DNA of 35,227 nucleotides from a virus. Lineage: Duplodnaviria; Heunggongvirae; Uroviricota; Caudoviricetes. The notes below the pieces were generated by a model. It saw only the letters and a list, made by a program, of their open reading frames with translations, had not been told where the DNA came from and searched no databases. Every line of letters begins with the position of its first letter. Position 1 is the first letter of the stretch. Positions 3,901-28,182 of the stretch are shown piece after piece. The stretch lies in the IMG/VR virus record IMGVR_UViG_2778261451_000005; one strand, written 5' to 3'. Position numbers and translations under genes: made by a program.

Positions 3901-4172
3901 GTATTCGTATTGAAATTGGCGAACGTTATGTCGTTACCAGTGACAGCTTTCAGTTTATTCTCCACGAGAAAAAGAGAGCTGAAAGCGGTAAAAATGCCGG
4001 TCAGGAATGGCTGGCGGTAGTTGGTTATTACCCGAAATTAAGCCAGCTCGTTTCCGGCCTGATGCATCACGATATTCTGACCGGAAGCGCAAAATCTTTT
4101 GCTGATTTAAACGCGCAGGTTGAGCAACTCAGCAAGCGTTGTTCAGAGGCTTTTGGCTCACATGGCCGTTAA
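3897..4172 (+). CDS. Early hypothetical protein (P2 orf83 position)
   Basis: 91 aa; ATG overlaps upstream stop; ends inside the start of A. Confidence 0.6.
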   Translation: MSIRIEIGERYVVTSDSFQFILHEKKRAESGKNAGQEWLAVVGYYPKLSQLVSGLMHHDILTGSAKSFADLNAQVEQLSKRCSEAFGSHGR

Positions 4173-6447
4173 AGCCTCCGGGCATTTTGTCCCTCCGTCA
4201 GCATTTGCCGCAGGCACCGGTAAGACGTTTACCGGTGCTTATGCATGGAACGCGCCACGCGAGGCCGTCGGGCGCGAAAGACCCCTTACACGTGACGAGA
4301 TGCGTCAGGTGCAAGGTGTTTTATCCACGATTAACCGCCTGCCTTACTTTTTGCGCTCGCTGTTTACTTCACGCTATGACTACATCCGGCGCAATAAAAG
4401 CCCGGTGCACGGGTTTTATTTCCTCACATCCACTTTTCAGCGTCGTTTATGGCCGCGCATTGAGCGTGTGAATCAGCGCCATGAAATGAACACCGACGCG
4501 TCGTTACTGTTTCTGGCAGAGCGTGAGCACTATGCGCGCCTGCCGGGAATGAATGACAAGGAGCTGAAAAAGTTTGCCGCCCGTATCTCATCGCAGCTTT
4601 TCATAATGTATGAGGAACTCTGCGATGCCTGGGTGGATGCGCATGGCGAGAAAGAATCGCTGTTTACGGATGAGGCGCAGGCGCATCTGTATGGTCATGT
4701 TGCTGGCGCTGCACGTGCTTTCAATATTTCCCCGCTCTACTGGAAAAAATACCGTAAAGGACAGATGACCACGAGGCAGGCATATTCTGCCATTGCCCGT
4801 CTGTTTAACGATGAGTGGTGGACTCATCAGCTTAAAGGCCAGCGTATGCGCTGGCATGAGGCGTTACTGATTGCTGTCGGGGAGGTCAATAAAGACCGTT
4901 CTCCTTATGCCAGTAAACATGCCATTCGTGATGTGCGTGCACGCCGCCAGGCAAATCTGGAATTTCTTAAATCGTGTGACCTTGAAAACAGGGAAACCGG
5001 CGAGCGCATCGACCTTATCAGTAAGGTGATGGGCAGTATTTCTAATCCTGAAATTCGCCGGATGGAGCTGATGAACACCATTGCCGGTATTGAGCGTTAC
5101 GCCGCAGCAGAGGGTGATGTGGGGATGTTTATCACGCTGACCGCGCCGTCAAAGTATCACCCGACACGTCAGGTCAGAAAAGGCGAAAGTAAAACCGTCC
5201 AGCTAAATCACGGCTGGAACGATGAGGCATTTAATCCAAAGGATGCGCAGCGTTATCTCTGCCGTATCTGGAGCCTGATGCGCACGGCATTCAAGGATAA
5301 TGATTTACAGGTCTACGGTTTGCGTGTCGTCGAGCCACACCACGACGGAACGCCGCACTGGCATATGATGCTTTTTTGTAATCCGCGCCAGCGTAACCAG
5401 ATTATCGAAATCATGCGTCGCTATGCGCTCAAAGAGGATGGCGACGAAAGAGGAGCCGCGCGAAACCGTTTTCAGGCAAAACACCTTAATCGGGGCGGTG
5501 CTGCGGGGTATATCGCGAAATACATCTCAAAAAACATCGACGGCTATGCACTGGATGGTCAGCTCGATAACGATACCGGCAGACCTCTGAAAGATACTGC
5601 CGCGGCTGTTACTGCATGGGCGTCAACGTGGCGCATCCCGCAATTTAAAACGGTTGGTCTGCCGACAATGGGGGCTTACCGTGAACTACGCAAATTGCCG
5701 CGCGGTGTCAGCATTGCTGATGAGTTTGACGAGCGCGTCGAGGCTGCACGCGCCGCCGCAGACAGTGGTGATTTTGCGTTGTATATCAGCGCGCAGGGTG
5801 GGGCAAATGTCCCGCGCGATTGTCAGACTGTCAGGGTCGCCCGTAGCCCGTCGGATGACGTTAACGAGTACGAGGAAGAGGTCGAGAGAGTGGTCGGCAT
5901 TTACGCGCCGCATCTCGGCGCGCGTCATATTCATATCACCAGAACGACGGACTGGCGCATTGTGCCGAAAGCTCCGGTCGTTGAGCCTTTGACTTTAAAA
6001 AGCGGCATCGCCGCGCCTCGGAGTCCTGTCAATAACTGTGGAAAGCTCACCGGTGGTGATACTTCGTTACCGGCTCCCACACCTTCTGAGCACGCCGCAG
6101 CAGTGCTAAATCTGGTTGATGACGGTGTTATCGAATGGAATGACCCGGAGGTTGTGAGGACGCTCAGGGGTGCATTAAAACACGGCCTGAAAACACCAAA
6201 TCGTCAGCAAAGAAATGGAAGCCCGTTAAAACCACATGAAATAGCACCGTCGGCCAGACTGACCCGGTCGGAACGATTGCAAATTACCCGTATCCGCGTT
6301 GACCTCGCTCAGAACGGTATCAGGCCGCAACGATGGGAGCTTGAGGCGCTGGCGCGTGGCGCGACAGTAAATTATGACGGGAAAAAATTCACGTATCCGG
6401 TCGCTGATGAGTGGTCGGGATTCTCAACAGTAATGGAGTGGACATGA
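4162..6447 (+). CDS. A: Rolling-circle replication initiator (nickase) A
   Basis: 761 aa from ATG at 4162 (ORF-track start 4120 is TTG); large conserved P2 A homologue by size and position. Confidence 0.88.
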   Translation: MAVKASGHFVPPSAFAAGTGKTFTGAYAWNAPREAVGRERPLTRDEMRQVQGVLSTINRLPYFLRSLFTSRYDYIRRNKSPVHGFYFLTSTFQRRLWPRIERVNQRHEMNTDASLLFLAEREHYARLPGMNDKELKKFAARISSQLFIMYEELCDAWVDAHGEKESLFTDEAQAHLYGHVAGAARAFNISPLYWKKYRKGQMTTRQAYSAIARLFNDEWWTHQLKGQRMRWHEALLIAVGEVNKDRSPYASKHAIRDVRARRQANLEFLKSCDLENRETGERIDLISKVMGSISNPEIRRMELMNTIAGIERYAAAEGDVGMFITLTAPSKYHPTRQVRKGESKTVQLNHGWNDEAFNPKDAQRYLCRIWSLMRTAFKDNDLQVYGLRVVEPHHDGTPHWHMMLFCNPRQRNQIIEIMRRYALKEDGDERGAARNRFQAKHLNRGGAAGYIAKYISKNIDGYALDGQLDNDTGRPLKDTAAAVTAWASTWRIPQFKTVGLPTMGAYRELRKLPRGVSIADEFDERVEAARAAADSGDFALYISAQGGANVPRDCQTVRVARSPSDDVNEYEEEVERVVGIYAPHLGARHIHITRTTDWRIVPKAPVVEPLTLKSGIAAPRSPVNNCGKLTGGDTSLPAPTPSEHAAAVLNLVDDGVIEWNDPEVVRTLRGALKHGLKTPNRQQRNGSPLKPHEIAPSARLTRSERLQITRIRVDLAQNGIRPQRWELEALARGATVNYDGKKFTYPVADEWSGFSTVMEWT

Positions 6448-6899
6448 TGGCAAAAATTCACGAGGTAAAGCTGCACGCAAAATATTTCGACCTTGTGCTG
6501 GAAGGAAAGAAACGCGCAGAGTTTCGGAAAAATGACCGTAATTATGAGCGCGGGGACACGTTGATTTTGCATGAATGGGGGCAGGGTGTGTATACGGGGC
6601 GAAAGGTTGAAGCCCGGATAACAGATGTTACTGACCTGTCAGACTGGCTGGAAGATTATGTCTTGCTAAGTATTGAGCTGCTTAATACAGGCGCATATGA
6701 GATTGTGAACTGGAAAGAACTTAGTGAGCGTGGTCTGTTATTCAGAATTAATCATGAAATTATGCATAAGCTCGGCCTTGCTGTTATGTATGAACCAGAG
6801 ACGGGAATGTCTGGCGGGGCAATGGTTGCCACGGATGGAGCATGGAACTATTCAGATGAACAGATGGAGCGTGCACAGCAAAACGGGTGGCTTGGATAA
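6444..6899 (+). CDS. Hypothetical protein with ASCH/PUA-like (DUF3850-type) N-terminal region (P2 orf91 position)
   Basis: ATG overlaps A stop (ATGA); N-terminus KIHEVKLHAKYFDLVLEGKKRAEFRKNDRNYERGDTLILHEW resembles the DUF3850/ASCH pattern (from memory). Confidence 0.6.
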   Translation: MMAKIHEVKLHAKYFDLVLEGKKRAEFRKNDRNYERGDTLILHEWGQGVYTGRKVEARITDVTDLSDWLEDYVLLSIELLNTGAYEIVNWKELSERGLLFRINHEIMHKLGLAVMYEPETGMSGGAMVATDGAWNYSDEQMERAQQNGWLG

Positions 6900-7105
6900 T
6901 GCACAGAATACCAGGCGAGATACCGCACCATAAAACTAAAAATATCAAGCTGATTGCTATTGTTCAGCGTTTACAGCGGATTATGGTCAACGAAAATCTG
7001 ACGCCCGATGAGCTAGTCGGGTGTGCCGAAATAGTCCGGGATAATTACGGGCGGTTTAACTATATCGGTCAGTCCAGAGTTGCGCCACCACCACGCAGAC
7101 GATAG
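6899..7105 (+). CDS. Small hypothetical ORF (68 aa)
   Basis: ATG overlaps upstream stop; no recognisable motif; could be non-coding. Confidence 0.3.
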   Translation: MHRIPGEIPHHKTKNIKLIAIVQRLQRIMVNENLTPDELVGCAEIVRDNYGRFNYIGQSRVAPPPRRR

Positions 7106-7107
7106 AT

Positions 7108-7170
7108 AACGCCGCCAGTCGTGAAACTTGTTTTCAGGGCTGGCGGCGTTGAACAACGAGTGAAGCGAGG
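7108..7170. repeat. Copy 1 of a ~55-bp repeated element preceding cargo gene 1; contains an 11-bp perfect-stem hairpin
   Basis: aacgccgccag…ctggcggcgtt hairpin followed by gaacaacgagtgaagcgagg; about 75-80% identical (by eye) to 8086..8143. Confidence 0.7.
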
Positions 7171-7334
7171 CGTTAGTTGACATTCATATTTTTACTGCGT
7201 TGGTGCTGTTTTTTGACGGTTGAAAGGAGTTATCTCGGAGAGCTAAAGCTAACAACTTACAAATATTCAAAAGTAAGCTTCCTGTTGCTAACATAAGGTC
7301 GATTTTTTATGTGGATGATGCAAAAAGGATAGCT

Positions 7335-8066
7335 ATGGATACTATAATCGCTTTTCTATCACTCGCTTTTTTTGTTGCTTTTTTCATCGGGTTAATCAAG
7401 CCATCACTGGTGCGAATGCCAAGCCGCAAACGTGCAAGTGCGGTTTATCTCGGAGGAGGTTTTGTATTGAGCATAATTGGTTCAATACTCTATCCAACAG
7501 AAAAAAGCCAGCCAGTTGCTAAAACTGAAACATCAACCGTTGTAGAACACCAAGTCCAAAAAACATTCGAATATGGTGAAAAAACACTCAAGGAATATCG
7601 GAGCGAGCCAAAGAAAACTCGACACGATATTGTGAATAGTTACATTGACTTTAAGAAAGTTCCAGTCACCGCATCAGATGCATTTTATGCCTGCATGAGT
7701 GAGTATACATTTACCAAAGATGATGAGTTGAAACTCGGTGATGTTCTTGGGTGGTGCTTTAATGATTATGAAAATGACCCGAGTTCACTAAATAATAAAA
7801 TCAATCTTGATACATTTCAGAGTAATTTTAGTGGTTGGGATGGTTCTTATCGTCCATTGGAAAAACTAATTAAAGATAATATGAACGATGATTCATCTTA
7901 TAAACATGTATCAACGGTATATCATTTAGTTTTGAATAAAGACCCGCACGCCATTGTGAAAACGACGTTTCGCGGCACTAATGCTTATGGTGGCATGGTC
8001 AAACAGACTGTAGCAGCGCGAGTTGACGTGCGAACGGGTGAGATCGATTCAATACTCGACAATTAA
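7335..8066 (+). CDS. Cargo gene 1: membrane-anchored protein of unknown function (two N-terminal TM helices plus ~190-aa domain)
   Basis: ATG at 7335 with AAGGAT SD (ORF-track start 7311 is GTG); hydrophobic segments TIIAFLSLAFFVAFFIGLI and AVYLGGGFVLSIIGSILY separated by a basic loop; AT-rich; occupies the P2 tin/old position. Confidence 0.7.
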   Translation: MDTIIAFLSLAFFVAFFIGLIKPSLVRMPSRKRASAVYLGGGFVLSIIGSILYPTEKSQPVAKTETSTVVEHQVQKTFEYGEKTLKEYRSEPKKTRHDIVNSYIDFKKVPVTASDAFYACMSEYTFTKDDELKLGDVLGWCFNDYENDPSSLNNKINLDTFQSNFSGWDGSYRPLEKLIKDNMNDDSSYKHVSTVYHLVLNKDPHAIVKTTFRGTNAYGGMVKQTVAARVDVRTGEIDSILDN

Positions 8067-8085
8067 ATAATATAGTGACAGCTCC

Positions 8086-8143
8086 GTCAGTGATGAAACT
8101 TGCTTTTAGTCTTGGCGGGGTTGAGCAATGAGTCTTGCAAGGT
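8086..8143. repeat. Copy 2 of the ~55-bp repeated element, directly upstream of cargo gene 2
   Basis: cagtgatgaaacttgcttttagtcttggcggggttgagcaatgagtcttgcaagg aligns with 7115..7170. Confidence 0.7.
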
Positions 8144-8149
8144 GTTAGC

Positions 8150-8806
8150 ATGCGTAGAATGGAAGCTGCTTGGACGTGGGGTATTCATATGAATTTAAAA
8201 ATTTTCGGCATAATTGTCCTTTCTGCTTTGATGTTCGTTTTAGGTTTTTTTCTCGGTGGTTTTAATTGGGAATGGGCTGATAAGAATTATGCAGGTGAGG
8301 TGGCGTTGTGGAGTATGTTAGGAGGGTGGTTATCCGCAATTGCAACTCTGTTTGCCGTGTTGGTTTCATTATATATGGCGTATCAAGCTACTCAGAATGA
8401 GATTGAAAAAATCAGGGTTACTCATGGAGTAAGTATGAGTGTCACTCATGACAATGAGTTAAGTTGTAATCTCATTATTCAGAACTTGAGAAATATGAAA
8501 GTGAATATTACTGGTGTTTTTTTGTCTCTAGGTAAATCATCAGGTAAGTACTCTTTGGATAAAGTAATTGACAATCGTAATATAACGCTTTCATATAAAG
8601 GTGAAACAGAAAAGGTACAATTTGTAATCCATTCTGGGTATATTTGGTGGTCAATGTATAAATTATTCGATATGGATAAGAACATAGGTTTTGAAAAGGG
8701 TAAGATCTTTATAACAACCAACCTCAATACATATGAATTTGATTTGCCAAAAGAATATTTAAGAGCTTTTGAGAAAGCTTATTCGGAGTATCAGACAAAA
8801 AAATAA
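8150..8806 (+). CDS. Cargo gene 2: membrane-anchored protein of unknown function (two N-terminal TM helices plus ~130-aa domain)
   Basis: ATG at 8150 preceded by AAGGTG (ORF-track start 8135 is TTG); hydrophobic segments IFGIIVLSALMFVLGFFLGGF and LWSMLGGWLSAIATLFAVLVSLYMAY; strongly AT-rich. Confidence 0.7.
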   Translation: MRRMEAAWTWGIHMNLKIFGIIVLSALMFVLGFFLGGFNWEWADKNYAGEVALWSMLGGWLSAIATLFAVLVSLYMAYQATQNEIEKIRVTHGVSMSVTHDNELSCNLIIQNLRNMKVNITGVFLSLGKSSGKYSLDKVIDNRNITLSYKGETEKVQFVIHSGYIWWSMYKLFDMDKNIGFEKGKIFITTNLNTYEFDLPKEYLRAFEKAYSEYQTKK

Positions 8807-9123: not shown

Positions 9124-10158
9124 TCAGCCGTTGTCAGTGTCCAGTGAGTAGTTTTTAAAGTGGATGACCTCCTGACCGAGCCAGCCGTTTATCTCGCGGA
9201 TCCTGTCCTGTAACGGGATAAGCTCATTGCGGACAAAGACCTTTGCCACTTTCTCAATATCACCCAGCGACCCGACGTTCTCCGGCTTGCCGCCCATCAA
9301 CTGAAAGGGGATGCGGTGCGCGTCCAGCAGGTCAGCGGCGCTGGCTTTTTTGATATTAAAAAAATCGTCCTTCGTTGCCACTTCACTGAGCGGGATAATT
9401 TTAATGCCGTCAGCTTTCCCCTGCGGGGCATAGAGAAACAGGTTTTTAAAGTTGTTGCGGCCTTTCGACTTCACCATGTTTTCGCGGAGCATTTCGATAT
9501 CGTTGCGATCCTGCACGGCATCAGTGACGTACATGATATATCCGGCATGAGCGCCGTTTTCGTAATACTTGCGGCGGAACAGCGTGGCTGATTCATTCAG
9601 CCAGGCAGAGTTAAGGGCGCTGAGATATTCCGGCAGACCGTACAGCTCCTGATTAATATCCGGCTCCAGCAGGTGAAACACGGAGCCGGGCGCGAAAGGT
9701 GTCGGCTCATGGAAGGACGGCACCCACCAGTAAACATCCTCTTCCACGCCACGGCGGGTATATTTTGCCGGTGAGGTTTCCAGTCTGATGACCTTACCGG
9801 TGGTGCTGTAACGCTTTTCCAGAAACGCATTACCGAACACCAGAAAATCCAGCACAAAGCGGCTGAAATCCTGCTGGGAAAGCCACGGATGCGGGATAAA
9901 TGTCGAGGACAGAATATTACGTTTGACGTAAATCGGGGAGCTGTGATGCACGGCAGCACGCAGGCTTTTTGCCAGACCGGTAAAGCTGACCGGTGGCTCA
10001 TACCATCTGCCGTTACTGATGCACTCGACGTAATCCAGAATGTCACGGCGGTCGAGTACCGGTACCGGCTCACCAAAGGTGAATGCCTCCATTTTCGGGG
10101 CGCTGGCGGTCATTGTTTTTGCCGCAGGTTGCGGTGTTTTCCCTTTTTTCTTGCTCAT
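9124..10158 (-). CDS. Q: Portal protein Q
   Basis: 344 aa; near-identical to recalled P2 Q (MSKKKGKTPQPAAKTMTASAPKMEAFTFGEP…). Confidence 0.95.
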   Translation of the reverse strand: MSKKKGKTPQPAAKTMTASAPKMEAFTFGEPVPVLDRRDILDYVECISNGRWYEPPVSFTGLAKSLRAAVHHSSPIYVKRNILSSTFIPHPWLSQQDFSRFVLDFLVFGNAFLEKRYSTTGKVIRLETSPAKYTRRGVEEDVYWWVPSFHEPTPFAPGSVFHLLEPDINQELYGLPEYLSALNSAWLNESATLFRRKYYENGAHAGYIMYVTDAVQDRNDIEMLRENMVKSKGRNNFKNLFLYAPQGKADGIKIIPLSEVATKDDFFNIKKASAADLLDAHRIPFQLMGGKPENVGSLGDIEKVAKVFVRNELIPLQDRIREINGWLGQEVIHFKNYSLDTDNG

Positions 10159-18375: not shown

Positions 18376-19161
18376 TTATGAGTGATTTTTATTTGATGCT
18401 TTGTATTCTAAAACCTTCTTATTGGCGTAAAAGAATTTTGTATATGACAGGAATATAACCAGACCTGAAGTGAAATAGACGAGGGATAGTATTAATAATG
18501 CTTTTTTGTGACTGTTATTATCTTTAATCTCCTGGCTTAACCATTCGGAGTCCTCCTCGTTTAGCTGTAAGAGCTTATTGCAGGCGATCTCAGGAAGTGT
18601 GTCTTTTATAAATACGTTTTGCAGTCTCTTGCAATCGGCAAGGCTATAAGTTTTATTAAATTCAACTGCTTTATTTTTGAAGGATAAAAGAACTTTGTCA
18701 CTATAAACATAGTACATCATGTTTTTATATGGTATGCCTATGGCATCCCTTACTATAACGGATTGTTCGTTGTGTATGTAACATGCGAGGAGAATGTAAA
18801 AAATACTGGCCAGAATTACAATTATTGTTTTAATTATGTGTGGTGGTTTTGTTATGTCACCCCAGATGCGAGTAAGGAAAAAATACGATGTTTTTAGTTT
18901 TCCATCAATCAGTCCCTGCTGTATCATTCTCACATTTTCAATGCCTGATACATTGATTCCATTAATTATTTTAAATAGTTGAATGTCGCGCCACTCGCGG
19001 TCAAGTCTTTTTAATTTTTTGTCTGAATATCCAAAATTGAAATAATGTGCAATAAGCCTCATAAGGTTACTTTTACCAAAGCTAAAAAATGCTAATACTG
19101 CAAAGCTACAAAGGAAAAAAACGATTAGCCCCCACACATTAGTCACATTATAGCTGACCAT
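18376..19161 (-). CDS. Cargo gene: 261-aa integral membrane protein of unknown function (three predicted TM helices), antisense to the tail operon
   Basis: ATG at 19161 with AAGGAGAG SD on minus strand; hydrophobic segments VWGLIVFFLCSFAVLAFFSF, IIKTIIVILASIFYILLACYI, ALLILSLVYFTSGLVIFLSY; strongly AT-rich; inserted between S and V (P2 orf30 position). Confidence 0.75.
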   Translation of the reverse strand: MVSYNVTNVWGLIVFFLCSFAVLAFFSFGKSNLMRLIAHYFNFGYSDKKLKRLDREWRDIQLFKIINGINVSGIENVRMIQQGLIDGKLKTSYFFLTRIWGDITKPPHIIKTIIVILASIFYILLACYIHNEQSVIVRDAIGIPYKNMMYYVYSDKVLLSFKNKAVEFNKTYSLADCKRLQNVFIKDTLPEIACNKLLQLNEEDSEWLSQEIKDNNSHKKALLILSLVYFTSGLVIFLSYTKFFYANKKVLEYKASNKNHS

Positions 19162-21670: not shown

Positions 21671-23776
21671 ATGAGCACAAAATTCAAAACCGTTATCACC
21701 ACTGCCGGTGCAGCAAAGCTGGCAGCGGCAACCGCACCGGGAGGGCGGAAGGTCAACATTACCACGATGGCCGTCGGGGATGGCGGTGGTAAATTGCCTG
21801 TCCCGGATGCCGGACAGACCGGGCTTATCCATGAAGTCTGGCGACATGCGCTGAACAAAATCACCCTGGACAAACGAAACAGTAATTATATTATCGCAGA
21901 GCTGGTTATTCCGCCGGAGGTGGGCGGTTTCTGGATGCGTGAGCTTGGCCTGTACGATGATGCGGGAACGCTAATTGCCGTGGCGAACATGGCTGAAAGT
22001 TATAAACCCGCTCTTGCCGAAGGCTCAGGGCGTTCGCAGACCTGCCGCATGGTCATCATCGTCAGCAGTGTGGCCTCAGTGGAGCTGACCATTGACACCA
22101 CAACGGTGATGGCAACGCAGGATTACGTTGATGACAAAATTGCAGAGCATGAACAGTCACGACGTCACCCGGACGCCTCGCTGACCGCAAAAGGTTTTAC
22201 TCAGTTAAGCAGTGCAACCAACAGCGCGTCTGAAACACTGGCTGCAACGCCGAAAGCGGTAAAGGCCGCGTATGACCTTGCTAACGGGAAATATACTGCG
22301 CAGGATGCCACCACAGCGCGAAAAGGTCTTGTCCAACTCAGTAGTGCCACCAACAGCACGTCTGAAACGCTCGCCGCAACACCAAAAGCGGTAAAGGCCG
22401 CGTATGACCTTGCTAACGGGAAATACACTGCACAGGACGCCACCACAGCGCGAAAAGGTCTTGTTCAGCTCAGTAGCGCCACCAACAGCGATTCTGAAAC
22501 GCTGGCCGCAACGCCAAAGGCGGTAAAGGTCGCGTATGACCTTGCTAACGGGAAATACACTGCACAGGACGCCACCACAGCGAGAAAAGGCCTTGTCCAG
22601 CTCAGTAGCGCCACCAACAGTGATTCTGAAACGCTTGCGGCAACGCCAAAGGCGGTAAAGGTCGCGTATGACCTTGCTAACGGGAAATACACTGCACAGG
22701 ATGCCACCACAGCGCGAAAAGGGCTTGTTCAGCTCAGTAGCGCCACCAACAGTGATTCTGAAACACTGGCCGCAACACCAAAAGCGGTGAAGTCTGCCTA
22801 TGACAATGCTGAAAAACGTCTTCAGAAAGATCAGAACGGTGCGGATATTCCTGATAAAAGATTATTCCTGCGCAATATTGGAGCAACAAATTCAACAACC
22901 ATGTCTTTTAGTGGTGGTACAGGATGGTTCAGGCTGGCAACTGTAACCATGCCCCAGGCCAGTTCCGTGGTTTACATAAGCCTGATTGGTGGTGCCGGAT
23001 ATAATGTTAACTCCCCTATGCAGGCTGGTATATCTGAACTTGTTCTTCGTGCGGGAAATGGAAATCCAAAAGGTCTTACTGGTGCGTTATGGCGACGGAC
23101 ATCGGTTGGATTTACTAATTTTGCATGGGTGAATACATCCGGTGATACCTATGATGTTTATGTTGAAATAGGTAATTACGCCACAGGTGTTAATATTCAG
23201 TGGGATTATACCAGTAACGCCAGCGTAACGATTCATACATCACCAACTTATACAGCGAATAAACCAACAGGCCTGACAGATGGAACTGTATATGTAATTT
23301 ACAGTTCGTACATTAAACCGACTGCTGCTGATGTTGGGGCGTTATCATTATCTGGTGGTCAATTGAATGGTGCTCTGGGTATAGGAACATCCAGTGCTCT
23401 TGGCGGTAATTCGATTGTTTTGGGTGATAATGACACGGGCTTTAAACAAAATGGTGATGGTAATCTGGATGTTTATGCTAATAGCGTCCATGTTATGCGC
23501 TTTGTCTCCGGAAGCGTTCAAAGTAATAAAACCATAAATATTACGGGGCGTGTTAATCCCTCGGATTACGGTAACTTTGATTCCCGCTATGTGAGAGATG
23601 TCAGACTTGGCACACGTGTTGTCCAGACCATGCAGAAAGGGGTGATGTATGAGAAAGCAGGGCACGTAATTACCGGGCTTGGTATTGTCGGTGAAGTCGA
23701 TGGTGATGACCCCGCAGTATTCAGACCAATACAAAAATACATCAATGGCACATGGTATAACGTCGCACAGGTGTAA
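21671..23776 (+). CDS. H: Tail fiber protein H with expanded internal repeats
   Basis: 701 aa; conserved N-terminus; about five tandem 44-aa repeats (…QLSSATNSxSETLAATPKAVKxAYDLANGKYTAQDATTARKG…); AT-richer C-terminal tip. Confidence 0.9.
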   Translation: MSTKFKTVITTAGAAKLAAATAPGGRKVNITTMAVGDGGGKLPVPDAGQTGLIHEVWRHALNKITLDKRNSNYIIAELVIPPEVGGFWMRELGLYDDAGTLIAVANMAESYKPALAEGSGRSQTCRMVIIVSSVASVELTIDTTTVMATQDYVDDKIAEHEQSRRHPDASLTAKGFTQLSSATNSASETLAATPKAVKAAYDLANGKYTAQDATTARKGLVQLSSATNSTSETLAATPKAVKAAYDLANGKYTAQDATTARKGLVQLSSATNSDSETLAATPKAVKVAYDLANGKYTAQDATTARKGLVQLSSATNSDSETLAATPKAVKVAYDLANGKYTAQDATTARKGLVQLSSATNSDSETLAATPKAVKSAYDNAEKRLQKDQNGADIPDKRLFLRNIGATNSTTMSFSGGTGWFRLATVTMPQASSVVYISLIGGAGYNVNSPMQAGISELVLRAGNGNPKGLTGALWRRTSVGFTNFAWVNTSGDTYDVYVEIGNYATGVNIQWDYTSNASVTIHTSPTYTANKPTGLTDGTVYVIYSSYIKPTAADVGALSLSGGQLNGALGIGTSSALGGNSIVLGDNDTGFKQNGDGNLDVYANSVHVMRFVSGSVQSNKTINITGRVNPSDYGNFDSRYVRDVRLGTRVVQTMQKGVMYEKAGHVITGLGIVGEVDGDDPAVFRPIQKYINGTWYNVAQV
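22189..22800 (+). repeat. About 4.6 tandem copies of a 132-bp coding repeat inside H
   Basis: Period 132 bp, nearly identical units; explains the spurious antisense ORFs 22201..22446 and 22465..22710. Confidence 0.85.
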
Positions 23777-23779
23777 TTT

Positions 23780-24307
23780 ATGCAGCATTTAAAAAATATT
23801 ACTGCGGGTAATCCAAAAACTGTTGCCCAATATCAACTGACAAAAAATTTTGATGTTATCTGGTTATGGTCCGAAGAGGGAAAAAACTGGTATGAGGAAG
23901 TAAGTAATTTTCAGGAAGACACGATAAAGATTGTTTACGATGAGAATAATATAATTGTCGGCATCACCAGAGATGCTTCAACGCTCAACCCTGAAGGTTT
24001 TAGCGTTGTCGAGGTTCCTGATATTACCGCCAACCGACGTGCTGATGACTCAGGTAAATGGATGTTTAAGGATGGTGCCGTGATTAAGCGGATTTATACG
24101 GCAGACGAACAGCTGCAACTGGCGGAATTACAGAAGTCAGCTTTGCTTTCCGAAGCTGAAACTATCATTCAGCCACTGGAACGCTCTGTCAGACTGAATA
24201 TGGCAACAGATGAGGAGCGTAGCCGACTGGAAGCATGGGAACGCTACAGTGTTCTGGTCAGCCGTGTGGATCCTGCAAATCCTGAATGGCCGGAAATGCC
24301 GCAATAA
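23780..24307 (+). CDS. G: Tail fiber assembly chaperone G
   Basis: 175 aa; follows H as in P2. Confidence 0.88.
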
Positions 24308-24341: not shown

Positions 24342-24383
24342 TAGCACAGAGTAAAGCCTAATCTGACAGTCTGCTCTGTGCTA
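24342..24383. repeat. Hairpin (10-bp stem tagcacagag / ctctgtgcta, 22-nt loop) carrying the left inverted-repeat site
   Basis: Read directly; no U-tract, so not a canonical terminator. Confidence 0.55.
24360..24375. repeat. Site L: 16-bp element aatctgacagtctgct, perfect inverted repeat of 26793..26808
   Basis: Exact reverse-complement match; candidate recombinase recognition site. Confidence 0.7.
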
Positions 24384-24485
24384 GGAGCGGACTGACCTGC
24401 TTCCCGATGATTAATACACAGCTATGCTAGTAATGTCCGTAGATCGCTGTGTGTTGCATCCATCGGTTGAACTCACAGTCCAAAC

Positions 24486-24506
24486 CAGACTGTCAGCTTT
24501 GATTAG
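24486..24506. repeat. Site M: cagactgtcagctttgattag, direct copy of site R (26795..26814) and inverted relative to site L
   Basis: 20 of 21 positions match site R, with one indel. Confidence 0.65.
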
Positions 24507-24659
24507 ATTCTACCTACTCAACCTGTCAGATAAGGTCTGAGCTAATACATCTAATATATGGCTTCGTGCAGGGGACGGCTATCGCGAACGTTAGGCCAGG
24601 TATCTGAATACGCACATTCACTTGGTTGTACTTCTTGCACTGATCTGCTATCCCGCACA

Positions 24660-24696
24660 GCTATTTATAGGTAATCTTCAGTGTATAATCTGCCAA
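24660..24696 (+). promoter_or_regulatory. Putative sigma70 promoter for the 280-aa cargo gene
   Basis: Perfect TATAAT at 24684..24689 with a weak -35; AGGAG SD at 24717..24721 before ATG 24728. Confidence 0.45.
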
Positions 24697-24727
24697 CTTA
24701 TGGAAGCTTGTACAACAGGAGAAATAT

Positions 24728-25570
24728 ATGAAAAAAGAATTGTTTGGACGTTGCCCGTTTGATCTTGACGAAGATGTAAAAAAAATAGCCGCGATAAATA
24801 AATATATCCATGCAAAATTTGAGGAGCATAAAAATAAAATAGACAACCTAAAGGGTGTGGAACAAAAATTGATGGTCTTACAGTACTTTAATGTACTGAA
24901 TGAACTTAGTAATCAGGCTATCTCTTCTTTGAATATAGGAGCCTTTTCAGCATCGGAAGTATTAGCTAGGGTTATAATAGAACAGGCTGCCAATCAATTT
25001 TATATAGCAATAGATGATGGCGAAAATGCACAAGCATTACTCAAGGCTAGTAAGAAATTAGTTCATAGTAATGGAAAACGGTGGCTGGAGTGTTTAAAAT
25101 CCAAAGGAATGACTAATCCAGCAGCAAATGAAAGGATTCGCATGGGAAAAGAACTAACTGATCTATTTAATAGATTGTGGCCAAATACACCTGAATATCC
25201 AGGAACCAGAAAACTTTTTGAATTAATTGGCTGGGAAACACACTATCATGCCCATTACGTTCCCCTTTGTGATTCAATACATACATTCTCTGATGATATG
25301 GTAAATATAGTATCTCTATATAATGCAATCCAAAGTGATGAAAATACTGCTATCGAATTCATTCTTGCAGTTAAACAAGAAAATAAACGGCTGGCAATTT
25401 ATAATTTTGTAATTGCTACGGCCCTTCGGTGTGAGGCCTTAGTAAATGTATTTAACTCTTTAGGTTATCAGGATATTATAACAGAAATGACACCAACAAT
25501 AGATACAGTCAACCAGACTATAATTCGATATGATGATTTTGATCATTCCAGAATTGATGATTGTCAATAA
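24728..25570 (+). CDS. Cargo gene: 280-aa soluble protein of unknown function (candidate defence/exclusion effector)
   Basis: ATG with AGGAG SD; AT-rich; no TM segments or motifs I recognise; in the P2 Z/fun position. Confidence 0.75.
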   Translation: MKKELFGRCPFDLDEDVKKIAAINKYIHAKFEEHKNKIDNLKGVEQKLMVLQYFNVLNELSNQAISSLNIGAFSASEVLARVIIEQAANQFYIAIDDGENAQALLKASKKLVHSNGKRWLECLKSKGMTNPAANERIRMGKELTDLFNRLWPNTPEYPGTRKLFELIGWETHYHAHYVPLCDSIHTFSDDMVNIVSLYNAIQSDENTAIEFILAVKQENKRLAIYNFVIATALRCEALVNVFNSLGYQDIITEMTPTIDTVNQTIIRYDDFDHSRIDDCQ

Positions 25571-25676
25571 TTAATTGACAGAATACGTACATGCGCAACA
25601 ACTAGTGATAGTTGACTTATTTTCGCTCTTGAGAGACAACCATACTCAAATCTCCCACATTGCAGGAGATTTGAAT

Positions 25677-26261
25677 ATGAAAACGTCACCGTGGAATAAA
25701 GACCGTACCATCGGTCAAAAAAGGCCACTTCAGATATCTCATATCTGGGGGATCCGGATTAGACTTGAGTTGGAAGGTAAAACACGCGATCTAGCTCTGT
25801 TCAACATGGCTTTGGACACTAAGCTACGGGGCTGTGATTTGGTCAAACTCAAAGTATCAGATGCTGCATATGGCAGTTCTGTCTCAAGCAGAGCAACGGT
25901 GTTGCAACAGAAAACCGGCAGCCCTGTCCAATTTGAGATAACCAAAGGGACAAGGGAAGCGGTTACTGCATTGATAAAGCTCGGCAACTGGCATAGTAAA
26001 GGCTTCCTGTTCCGCTCTCGGGTCGGAACTAACCACCATATATCAACCCGGCAATACAACCGAATTTTTCATGGGTGGGTAGAAAAGCTTGGTCTCGAAG
26101 ATTCGCTGTACAGCACACATTCCATGAGAAGAACAAAACCTTACTTAATCTACAAGAAAACCAAGAGTCTCCGGGTGATCCAACTTCTGTTGGGCCATAA
26201 GAAACTGGAAAGCACAGTCCGTTATTTGGGCATTGAAGTCGATATAGAAGGTCTCTTTTAA
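25677..26261 (+). CDS. Small tyrosine recombinase, catalytic domain only (FimB/FimE-like size)
   Basis: 194 aa from ATG at 25677 with AGGAG SD (ORF-track start 25575 rejected); catalytic signature R (…TKLRGCDL…), HxxR (…THSMRRT…), LLGHxxxxxTxxY (…LLGHKKLESTVRY…); lacks an N-terminal core-binding domain. Confidence 0.75.
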   Translation: MKTSPWNKDRTIGQKRPLQISHIWGIRIRLELEGKTRDLALFNMALDTKLRGCDLVKLKVSDAAYGSSVSSRATVLQQKTGSPVQFEITKGTREAVTALIKLGNWHSKGFLFRSRVGTNHHISTRQYNRIFHGWVEKLGLEDSLYSTHSMRRTKPYLIYKKTKSLRVIQLLLGHKKLESTVRYLGIEVDIEGLF

Positions 26262-26283: not shown

Positions 26284-26661
26284 TCAATAGCGTATGCTCA
26301 TCGAAGAAATAAACTCATAAAATGTAAAGACAGCCAGCAAAAACATACAGATAAAGATAAGGGAAATAGCACACTTAACTAAGGGCTGAACCCCCCGAGG
26401 TGTTCCCCATGGTTTAGACATTTGGGTTATAACCCAAATAAATAAGGCCACAAAACAGCAAACACCAGCCAATCCGAGCAGAGATATTATGACAACTCCA
26501 AACAGATTTCCAACATCTAGTTTATCTGTTTTTGCAACTAGGGTTAACAAACCAGCAATAATAGTTGCAATCGATATTCCCGCAATGGTTGTGAGATCGG
26601 CGATAACAGCCAGTTTTTCTTTAGTATTTCCTTGAGTAAAAACCTCTAAAATTGATTTCAT
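26284..26661 (-). CDS. Cargo gene: 125-aa membrane protein (three predicted TM helices), convergent with the recombinase
   Basis: ATG at 26661 with AGGTGG SD; TATAAT-like -10 elements upstream on minus strand; hydrophobic segments throughout; AT-rich. Confidence 0.65.
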   Translation of the reverse strand: MKSILEVFTQGNTKEKLAVIADLTTIAGISIATIIAGLLTLVAKTDKLDVGNLFGVVIISLLGLAGVCCFVALFIWVITQMSKPWGTPRGVQPLVKCAISLIFICMFLLAVFTFYEFISSMSIRY

Positions 26662-26792
26662 GGAAATAACCACCTACTATCGATTATATTCAGGAGCTTT
26701 TTATTATAACGATATCAGATAGATAAGGACATTGTAATATTTTGGATGATTTAAACTTGCTTTTGTAACTCTAATGTCCACTTTTCGCTCAA

Positions 26793-26814
26793 AGCAGACT
26801 GTCAGATTTGATAG
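26793..26814. repeat. Site R: agcagactgtcagatttgatag (inverted partner of site L, direct partner of site M)
   Basis: Exact 16-bp reverse-complement match to 24360..24375; lies between the island and FI. Confidence 0.7.
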
Positions 26815-26867
26815 CATTTGGGCTATGTAAATTGTCAGGCGGAAAATGAGTGAGTACAAATCAGGAC

Positions 26868-26895
26868 AGGCGGGCGAATTGCCCGCCTTTTCTTT
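26868..26895 (+). terminator. Rho-independent terminator upstream of FI
   Basis: aggcgggc / gcccgcct stem, 5-nt loop, followed by TTTTCTTT. Confidence 0.7.
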
Positions 26896-26991: not shown

Positions 26992-28182
26992 ATGAGTGAC
27001 TATCATCATGGCGTGCAGGTGCTGGAGATTAACGACGGCACCCGCGTCATTTCCACCGTATCCACTGCCATTGTCGGCATGGTCTGCACGGCCAGCGATG
27101 CGGATGCGGAAACCTTCCCCCTCAATAAACCGGTGCTGATTACCAATGTGCAAAGCGCAATTGCAAAGGCCGGTAAAAAAGGCACGCTGGCGGCATCGTT
27201 GCAGGCCATCGCTGACCAGTCAAAACCGGTCACCGTTGTCGTGCGCGTGGAAGACGGCACCGGTGATGACGAGGAAACGAAACTCGCGCAGACCGTTTTC
27301 AATATCATCGGCACCACCGACGAAAACGGTCAGTACACCGGACTAAAAGCCCTGCTGGCGGCGGAGTCGGTAACCGGTGTTAAACCGCGTATTCTCGGTG
27401 TGCCGGGACTGGATACCAAAGAGGTGGCTGTTGCACTGGCATCCGTCTGTCAGAAGCTGCGCGCTTTCGGATATATCAGCGCATGGGGCTGTAAGACCAT
27501 TTCCGAGGTGAAAGCCTACCGCCAGAATTTCAGCCAGCGTGAGCTGATGGTCATCTGGCCGGATTTCCTCGCATGGGATACGGTCACCAGTACCACCGCC
27601 ACCGCGTATGCCACCGCCCGTGCGCTGGGTCTGCGCGCTAAAATCGACCAGGAGCAGGGCTGGCATAAAACGCTGTCCAACGTCGGGGTAAACGGTGTTA
27701 CCGGCATCAGCGCGTCCGTATTCTGGGATTTGCAGGAGTCCGGCACCGATGCTGACCTGCTTAACGAGTCAGGCGTCACAACGCTGATTCGCCGTGACGG
27801 TTTCCGCTTCTGGGGTAACCGTACCTGCTCTGATGACCCGCTGTTCCTCTTTGAAAACTACACCCGCACCGCGCAGGTGCTGGCCGACACGATGGCTGAG
27901 GCGCACATGTGGGCGGTGGACAAGCCCATCACCGCAACGCTGATTCGCGACATCGTTGACGGCATCAATGCCAAATTCCGAGAGCTGAAAACAAACGGCT
28001 ATATCGTGGATGCGACCTGCTGGTTCAGCGAAGAATCCAACGATGCGGAAACCCTCAAGGCCGGAAAACTGTATATCGACTACGACTATACCCCGGTGCC
28101 TCCTCTCGAAAACCTGACCCTGCGCCAGCGTATTACCGATAAATACCTGGCAAATCTGGTCACCTCGGTTAACAGCAATTAA
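26992..28182 (+). CDS. FI: Tail sheath protein FI
   Basis: 396 aa; P2 size and order. Confidence 0.93.
   Translation: MSDYHHGVQVLEINDGTRVISTVSTAIVGMVCTASDADAETFPLNKPVLITNVQSAIAKAGKKGTLAASLQAIADQSKPVTVVVRVEDGTGDDEETKLAQTVFNIIGTTDENGQYTGLKALLAAESVTGVKPRILGVPGLDTKEVAVALASVCQKLRAFGYISAWGCKTISEVKAYRQNFSQRELMVIWPDFLAWDTVTSTTATAYATARALGLRAKIDQEQGWHKTLSNVGVNGVTGISASVFWDLQESGTDADLLNESGVTTLIRRDGFRFWGNRTCSDDPLFLFENYTRTAQVLADTMAEAHMWAVDKPITATLIRDIVDGINAKFRELKTNGYIVDATCWFSEESNDAETLKAGKLYIDYDYTPVPPLENLTLRQRITDKYLANLVTSVNSN

Follow-up and report, generated by a model that had tools for sequence, protein, structure and literature searches.

A DUF5677 gene co-mobile with a small tyrosine recombinase in the Z/fun slot of a P2-like prophage: a candidate anti-phage effector

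Fun(Z) of phage P2 is a T5-exclusion gene at the Z/fun locus, and the repeats of this locus were reportedly first annotated by Nilsson et al. in 2004. The DNA analysed here (the window, 35,227 nucleotides (nt), IMG/VR record IMGVR_UViG_2778261451_000005) was identified as a P2-like prophage in which the same slot is occupied by a gene of Pfam family DUF5677, encoding a protein of 280 amino acids (aa). Z/fun is recognised as a P2 defence hotspot (PMC13586616). HepS, a solo HEPN abortive-infection (Abi) protein located in an accessory slot of the lambdoid prophage Gifsy-1, is a complete abortive-infection system (PMC13043305). In a survey of HEPN domains, many families were found to have a second motif, Ex3[KR], in helix 2; AbiV and the AF0298 class lack the canonical histidine, for which an alternative histidine from an insert was proposed, and other families keep the histidine and recruit a basic residue from elsewhere (PMC3710099). 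The triad of the anticodon nuclease PrrC consists of R320-x3-E324 and the distant H356 (PMC1484252). The DUF5677 gene was compared with these systems and was found to be intact, conserved, and co-mobile with a ~200-aa tyrosine recombinase (hereafter also the integrase) that carries known or candidate defence genes elsewhere.

The gene lies exactly where an earlier sequence-only reading had placed an AT-rich 280-aa open reading frame (ORF), in the Z/fun slot between tail-fibre assembly gene G and sheath gene FI, and its GC content is 0.34, compared with ~0.55 in the flanks. That reading had described the protein as an orphan, a label that had to be withdrawn. Residues 50-194 matched Pfam DUF5677 (PF18928) at 40.1 bits (gathering cutoff, 27.1), and phrog_4167, a family without annotated function, was matched end to end (1-280 of 280, E = 2.3e-202). 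The RefSeq name is 'DUF5677 domain-containing protein', and no NCBIfam model covers the protein. DUF5677 was likewise the sole Pfam family matched by the aligned relatives (73 of 73, best E = 3.4e-20, in a scan at E <= 1). An exhaustive profile search of 1.84 billion representatives returned 80 clusters, most of 270-300 aa; all of their representatives were single-domain proteins of roughly 190-340 aa, or fragments, and no domain fusion was seen among them. The close subfamily was present in 8 of ~185,000 species-representative genomes. DUF5677 is a small, uncharacterised family, and its motifs are conserved across Proteobacteria and beyond.

Of 5,426 complete E. coli genomes, 55 had the DUF5677 gene followed by the recombinase gene, and in 36, including S88, ATCC 11775, and PCN033, the whole insert was at least 99.6% identical. 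The gene was also found in 18 IMG/VR prophage-type contigs, and no match was obtained with tblastn of the protein against 50,697 isolated-phage genomes, P2 included. The full-length ORF was intact in all 55 E. coli genomes with the module and in the 18 viral contigs. The ratio of nonsynonymous to synonymous substitution rates (dN/dS) was 0.20-0.36 among four contexts: this window, Buttiauxella (locus L014), 'Bacterium BS0013' (L015), and an E. coli lambdoid prophage (L006). Judged from these comparisons, the gene is real and under purifying selection.

The interval between G and FI is an AT-rich insert of 2.7 kb (GC content, 0.35-0.42; flanks, 0.54-0.59), and in segments of 500 nt the values were 0.35-0.38 across the gene and 0.54-0.59 in the adjoining tail genes. 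The insert edges match the GenBank entry 'P2-EC58 proviral Z-region', in which left and right inverted repeats are annotated, and the position is the classical Z/fun accessory slot of P2. The sequence-only reading had credited the gene with its own promoter, a strong -10 element, and a Shine-Dalgarno sequence (SD). A perfect TATAAT at 24684-24689 and an AGGAG at 24717-24721, 6 nt ahead of the ATG, were indeed present, and both are invariant in the alignment of four independent genomic contexts, as part of a conserved leader of ~220 nt. 'Strong' was an overstatement: the -35 element is poor, for which reason a consensus promoter scan called no sigma-70 promoter at the leader, and promoter-like sites in the whole region were fewer than in shuffled sequences (5 vs 7.8). 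The translation-initiation region is unusually open (z = +2.0), and an Rfam search of the leader returned no family. The gene would be expressed in the lysogen, presumably from this promoter; because no plus-strand terminator was found between G and the gene, read-through from the late operon is also possible.

The gene does not stand alone, for a tyrosine recombinase gene lies 107 nt downstream and travels with it. In blastn comparisons the leader (from ~24376-24444), the DUF5677 gene, and the recombinase gene moved together, with the two genes on the same strand and the same 107-nt gap in three independent contexts (P2, lambdoid, Buttiauxella) and no terminator found between them. The Buttiauxella module was 96-98% identical to the window. 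Modules in E. coli lambdoid prophages (e.g., E2348/69) were 83-92% identical, with the recombinase frameshifted and a complete Septu system directly downstream (PtuA, 1.9e-165; PtuB, 1.1e-83). In prototype enteropathogenic strain E2348/69 (L028, NC_011601.1 1277241-1281117), DUF5677, the frameshifted integrase, and PtuA/PtuB stand in tandem between the replication genes and hokD/rem of a lambdoid prophage, the same kind of slot as that of HepS in Gifsy-1. In the P2-type contig L111 only 35 aa of the recombinase are left and the following gene is missing, but DUF5677 is 100% intact. Since the gene remains whole where the integrase is frameshifted, truncated (as in the window), or nearly deleted (as in L111), DUF5677 is the retained part of the module.

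The recombinase has 194 aa in the window, compared with 200 aa natively, and its R...K...HxxR...H...Y residues are present. Homology to the recombinase module ends at 26243, where homology to a cassette with a 129-aa membrane protein gene begins, and the last 12 recombinase codons are replaced. A site-specific join at this point was rejected; the 3' end of the integrase gene is fused into the terminator hairpin of the neighbouring cassette, and the junction is therefore taken to be illegitimate and to mark the right end of the DUF5677 cassette in the window. Around the integrase start, the SD (GGAG) and the ATG are paired with a complement further upstream in a hairpin with 15-nt arms (93% complementary). 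This hairpin belongs to the conserved integrase core, whose start is near 25623, and probably acts as a translational brake or contributes to a recombination site. The 129-aa membrane protein was considered as a partner of DUF5677 and rejected: its gene forms a separate cassette, which in other P2 hotspots accompanies DUF6650 where DUF5677 is missing. The gene was found in 64 complete E. coli genomes, whereas L014, L006-L009, and L111 lack it. Inversion of the insert by the integrase between the hotspot repeats was also considered; all 36 full-length E. coli copies aligned with their flanks as an unbroken block, always in the same orientation, and thus gave no sign of inversion.

The recombinase core (~710 nt; window 25623-26243) was found at 88-94% identity in ~800 further E. 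coli genomes with other neighbours. It extends from ~55 nt upstream to ~45 nt downstream of the 200-aa gene, with the onset of homology 53-66 nt upstream of the ATG. The integrase neighbours included PD-T7-1 (L022, E = 3.7e-157), HEC-08/DUF3644 (L023, E = 1.1e-173), PD-T7-5 two genes away (L024, E = 8e-102), and an annotated restriction endonuclease (L026); a degraded integrase copy lies beside glycosyltransferases and ArdC (L027). As judged by these matches, the integrase carries known or candidate defence genes at other loci. The surroundings of DUF5677 relatives are of a similar kind. Distant relatives were located in lambdoid prophages just past the replication genes, and relatives were neighbours of a Lamassu-like Cap4_nuclease and SMC pair, of AAA_15/21 with a methylase, or of DUF4365 and PDDEXK_GAPS4. 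Further relatives share islands with ScoMcrA_N/NOV_C genes and with an AAA_13 ATPase of PrrC type, one lies beside a giant sacsin (SACS)/NOV_C protein and a STAND-like ATPase, and one is found in a Burkholderia integrative element. Most of the sampled neighbourhoods are defence islands or prophage defence slots.

The protein was predicted to be all-alpha and to lack a transmembrane segment, which bears out the earlier prediction of a soluble product. An AlphaFold2 model built from an alignment of 28 sequences (predicted local distance difference test (pLDDT), 90.2; predicted template modelling score (pTM), 0.87) consists of ten helices and no strands. Structural comparison with Foldseek had been proposed by the sequence-only reading; against the PDB and BFVD it returned nothing meaningful (best E about 0.1-0.16, template modelling score <= 0.33), but a fold search points to HEPN, with KNTase_C-type domains among the matches and generic helical bundles interleaved, and a four-helix up-down bundle of HEPN type is present in the predicted fold. 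Across 73 relatives (~16-40% identity), R81 is invariant, and E85, N89, W119, P158, F164, Y173, H185, D190, and N193 are each at least 90% conserved; glutamate is the majority residue at position 77. The conserved polar set comprises E77, R81, E85, N89, H185, D190, and N193. In the closer subfamily these residues belong to two motifs, S74-x2-E77-x3-R81-V-x2-E85-Q-x-A-N89-x2-Y92 and Y173-H-x2-Y-x-P-L-C-D-S-x-H185-x2-S-D-D-M-x-N193. The i, i+4, i+8 spacing places each polar set on one helix face, and in the predicted fold the two stripes would lie on neighbouring helices, one (E77/R81/E85/N89) on helix 3 and the other (H185/D190/N193) where helix 8 begins. At the sequence level, E77-x3-R81 has the form of the second HEPN motif, Ex3[KR], and is invariant in the 28-sequence subfamily alignment. 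The DUF5677 protein is accordingly termed HEPN-like in its predicted fold and not a demonstrated HEPN RNase, because the likenesses are analogies and no sequence-profile link to HEPN families was found.

The repeats that bound the slot were compared with sequences at the integrase loci. The integrase core ends in a hairpin followed by GTGCCA-N4-CGGAC, a form shared by the inner part of the left inverted repeat of P2; the full 24-nt site is the hairpin GTCCGCTC-TGTGCCAG-GAGCGGAC. A relaxed pattern, GTGC[CT]A-N4-C[AG]GA[AC], had 15 matches in the integrase and hotspot loci (expected, 0.4), each of them on the integrase strand, and no match in unrelated loci of ~200 kb in total; about half of the 15 sites had not been used in defining the pattern. 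In the window the left repeat, which can be aligned with the sequence annotated as 'left inverted repeat' in P2-EC58, contains an A-type site with the hairpin GTCTGCTC-TGTGCTAG-GAGCGGAC at 24369-24392 (pattern match at 24378). As single-stranded DNA this site folds at -11.1 kcal/mol (z = -2.6), and the same A-type site is found at the left module end in Buttiauxella. Inside the module, a relic B-type repeat is in direct orientation with 26790-26838 (71% identity) and inverted relative to 24360-24387, and it occupies the same position in the non-P2 contexts L014 and L006-L009. The stretch from 24393 to 24535, in which the relic right-type copy lies ~60 nt after the A-type site, resembles an 'empty' mini-cassette and is conserved in non-P2 modules.

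Sites of this kind bracket cassettes with PD-T7-1 and integrase, HEC-08 and integrase, ETEC_3214 and a hypothetical gene, DUF5677 and integrase, TM129, and DUF6650. At cassette-cassette junctions a B-type ('right-repeat') hairpin precedes the A-type site to give units of ~70 nt, and three of the four tested units folded better than nearly all shuffles (z = -2.6 to -3.5; z = -1.8 for that of L023). All 15 multi-site loci had co-oriented sites, and each of the five loci with the integrase had a site 31 nt beyond its stop. The exact 24-mer was found in 72 IMG/VR contigs (L034-L105); 38 of these were P2 G-FI hotspots, in which the site follows G by ~75 nt and always points the same way. By locus kind, the 24-nt sites, of which the Z/fun inverted repeats are instances, were seen in P2 G-FI hotspots, lambdoid post-replication slots, and chromosomal islets. 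From this pattern, it is suggested that a cassette system uses the Z/fun inverted repeats as docking sites, with recombination at these repeats put forward as a proposal.

From these observations a mechanism may be proposed. A cassette composed of the leader, the DUF5677 gene, and the ~200-aa tyrosine recombinase would have landed at the hairpin-type repeat bounding the Z/fun slot, with the DUF5677 gene, which would encode a functional stand-alone cytoplasmic protein, as its cargo. Transcribed in the lysogen from its own -10-driven promoter, this gene would protect its host against other phages as a single-protein effector of the abortive-infection type. The two polar stripes on the HEPN-like core could form a non-canonical, metal-independent RNase-type site of arginine, glutamate, and histidine, as in the PrrC triad or the alternative-histidine site proposed for AbiV/AF0298, and the extra C-terminal helices might keep the enzyme inactive until an infection cue is received. 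Expression in the lysogen, the defence activity, the choice of RNA as substrate, the way the active site is arranged, and any triggering cue are all conjectural parts of this scheme.

The best reading of the locus, drawn from the predicted fold and from analogy with described sites, is that DUF5677 may be a stand-alone anti-phage effector, possibly a non-canonical HEPN-type RNase. The sequence-only reading had also named the gene a defence-effector candidate. Its supporting arguments were partly wrong, as the protein is not an orphan and has a recognisable nuclease-associated fold; the candidacy itself is strengthened by the defence-rich neighbourhoods, the defence-carrying integrase, purifying selection, and the HEPN-like core. 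A defence role is thus plausible, and better supported by context than that reading could know, but we would place it slightly below an even chance. Several results count against it. The Rx4-6H motif expected at the end of helix 3 is absent, as had been noted earlier (although the predicted fold is a nuclease-associated one, which had been missed): no conserved arginine stands 5-7 residues ahead of any conserved histidine, R81 and H185 are 104 residues apart, and H185 is preceded by L, P, and V at -5 to -7. In the Pfam scan of the 73 members no HEPN or Abi family was matched, PDB profile searches with the family alignments gave chance matches only, and hhalign of the family profile against the HEPN-type HEC-08/DUF3644 gave a probability of 0.2%. 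PADLOC-DB v2 had no family matching the protein at E <= 1, and no paper mentioning it was found in the literature. In the only published test of a DUF5677 ORF, from a preprint on serine-recombinase-associated defence, a distant Bacillota homologue was expressed in E. faecalis; five of nine candidates gave protection against six phages, and this ORF was not one of them. Pseudomonas relatives are lone genes amid ordinary chromosomal genes of metabolism and regulation. All but the profile searches and the literature result could also be read in favour of a non-defence lysogenic-conversion or accessory protein, for example a non-catalytic RNA- or ligand-binding HEPN-like regulator (cf. MtlR-type), since the canonical catalytic motif, a PADLOC match, and protection by the one tested homologue are all wanting; the HEPN survey notes non-catalytic HEPN domains (PMC3710099), and P2 hotspots also hold partition systems and toxins (PMC9122126). 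We consider such a protein rather unlikely, as the Arg/Glu/Asn and His/Asp/Asn set conserved to ~16% identity looks catalytic, most of the sampled neighbourhoods are defence-rich, and the carrier integrase otherwise carries defence genes.

The constant arrangement of DUF5677 and integrase in three contexts, with no terminator between them, would also fit a protein that serves the cassette, either as an accessory or directionality factor for the recombinase or as an addiction-type toxin that stabilises the cassette. HEPN domains are common as toxins of toxin-antitoxin systems (PMC3710099), and in the preprint DUF5677 was enriched, and predicted to be co-transcribed, beside serine recombinases in Bacillota. 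This is nevertheless improbable, because the integrase core occurs without DUF5677 in ~800 E. coli genomes, DUF5677 is intact where the integrase is a pseudogene or deleted, many relatives have no nearby recombinase, and no conserved antitoxin candidate was found. A counter-defence protein helping the prophage or its relatives to overcome host immunity is less probable still: phage accessory hotspots hold both defence and counter-defence genes, and the Burkholderia relative neighbours an AcrVA2-like gene, but the slots are typical of lysogen-expressed genes and lie beside defence systems and not in early lytic operons, none of the isolated-phage genomes had a match, and 280 aa with enzyme-like conservation is atypical for small inhibitors. 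That the ORF is a hitch-hiker or is decaying without a current function, as the patchwork locus with its illegitimate junction, truncated integrase, and relic repeat could suggest, is largely refuted by its intactness in the 55 E. coli genomes and 18 viral contigs, its dN/dS values, and its family-wide motifs. The most far-reaching form of the defence reading has two parts: that DUF5677 is a new single-protein Abi nuclease on a HEPN-like scaffold with re-wired Arg/Glu/His residues, and that an undescribed cassette system, with a ~200-aa catalytic-domain-only recombinase and hairpin sites of ~24-70 nt, moves it and many other defence cargos, among them PD-T7-1 and HEC-08, back and forth between hotspots in prophages (P2 Z/fun and the lambdoid post-replication slot) and chromosomal islets. 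The Z/fun repeats would be docking sites for this system. Taken as a whole, this conjunction is doubtful.

Table 1. Coordinates of the Z/fun slot and adjoining tail genes in the window.
Feature	Position	Strand	Details
Tail-fibre gene H	21671-23776	+	
Tail-fibre assembly gene G (Caudo_TAP)	23780-24307		
Left inverted repeat of the Z/fun hotspot, left edge of the DUF5677 cassette	24360-24392	+	Inverted repeat with 26776-26808
Relic B-type (right-repeat-like) repeat inside the module, upstream of the gene	24455-24535	-	Core CCAGACTGTCAG at 24485-24496
Conserved upstream leader with putative promoter and SD	24509-24727	+	83-96% identity across four contexts
DUF5677-family gene	24728-25570	+	ATG to TAA, 280 aa, all-alpha (predicted), HEPN-like core
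Hairpin pairing integrase SD and ATG with upstream complement	25641-25679	+	RNA fold -17.4 kcal/mol, z = -3.5
Small tyrosine recombinase, catalytic domain only	25677-26261	+	PF00589, E = 1.5e-17; RefSeq coding sequence in S88
129-aa multi-pass membrane protein gene	26284-26673	-	phrog_4155; no Pfam or PADLOC match
Right inverted repeat, B-type site GTCCACTTTTCGCTCAAAGCAGACTGTCAGATT...	26776-26838	+	Matches annotated 'right inverted repeat' of P2-EC58
Intrinsic terminator closing the insert ahead of FI	26868-26888	+	RNA fold -20.1 kcal/mol, z = -4.9
Sheath gene FI	26992-28182		

Elsewhere in the window, the P2 hotspot at the old/tin position (6411-8806; GC content, 0.37-0.46), between gpA (4120-6447) and the portal gene (9124-10158), contains a 162-aa ASCH/DUF3850/DUF7415 protein and ORFs of 251 aa and 223 aa without a Pfam or PADLOC match; these are further candidate accessory or defence genes. 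A 261-aa ORF at 18376-19161 on the minus strand, between tail-completion gene S and spike gene V, has a GC content of 0.36 and no Pfam or PADLOC match, and this patch is a third moron-like insertion. Tail-fibre gene H encodes five tandem repeats of ~44 aa (TAQDATTARKGLVQLSSATNS-SETLAATPKAVK-AYDLANGKY), and the S88 homologue differs there. An extra exact copy of the repeat core, CTGACAGTCTG, is located at 5824-5834 on the minus strand in the region of replication gene A, far from the hotspot, and may be due to chance.

If DUF5677 proves to be anti-phage, a function would be assigned to an uncharacterised Pfam family, and a HEPN-fold enzyme would be seen to work without Rx4-6H. HEPN-fold proteins that lack this motif escape motif-based screens, as happened in the sequence-only reading. 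The carrier may matter more, because a small integrase and a directional structured site bracket defence cassettes in several kinds of loci. Such an architecture would be a concrete mechanism for the turnover of defence genes and, if true, would explain swapping at Z/fun; the 24-nt site could serve as a sequence handle for mining new defence genes.

Among the described systems, Fun(Z) shares with the DUF5677 gene the G-FI slot and the flanking inverted repeats, and both would be lysogen-expressed accessory genes. There is no homology between them: P2, Wphi, and L-413C match the insert at its flanks only, and the protein had no tblastn match in the isolated-phage collection, P2 included. HepS is stand-alone, under 250 aa, and has a canonical RX4-6H (R100-H105), whereas the DUF5677 protein has 280 aa and lacks RX4-6H (PMC13043305). 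Two candidate HepS ORFs in the LT2 Gifsy-1 record were dropped as comparators, as they are without R100-x4-H105. To AF0298-type HEPN-T/AbiV proteins no sequence or profile similarity was found (no PADLOC AbiV match, and DUF5677 as the only Pfam family), and AF0298 is a minimal domain of 126 aa.

The carrier resembles integrons with attC or pdif sites in that short, structured, imperfect palindromes separate cassettes of one to a few genes, the sites are co-oriented, and a tyrosine recombinase is associated with them. It differs in that the integron enzyme IntI belongs to the platform, whereas a ~200-aa enzyme with only the catalytic domain lies inside the cassette here; NCBIfam integron-integrase models matched it at E = 1.4e-3 and 1.7e-3 (bit scores, 17.9 and 17.8; cutoffs, 435 and 265), well short of an IntI assignment. 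The cassettes here also have their own promoters and occur in either orientation, and their sites are unlike attC or dif in sequence. For the effector, PrrC/RloC offers a parallel. In PrrC the nuclease is joined with an ABC-type ATPase in one protein and associated with a type I restriction-modification system, whereas DUF5677 is stand-alone, but the arginine-x3-glutamate with a sequence-distant histidine in PrrC/RloC is paralleled by R81-x3-E85 and H185, a motif analogy and not an alignment, and both are HEPN or HEPN-resembling proteins with anti-phage associations.

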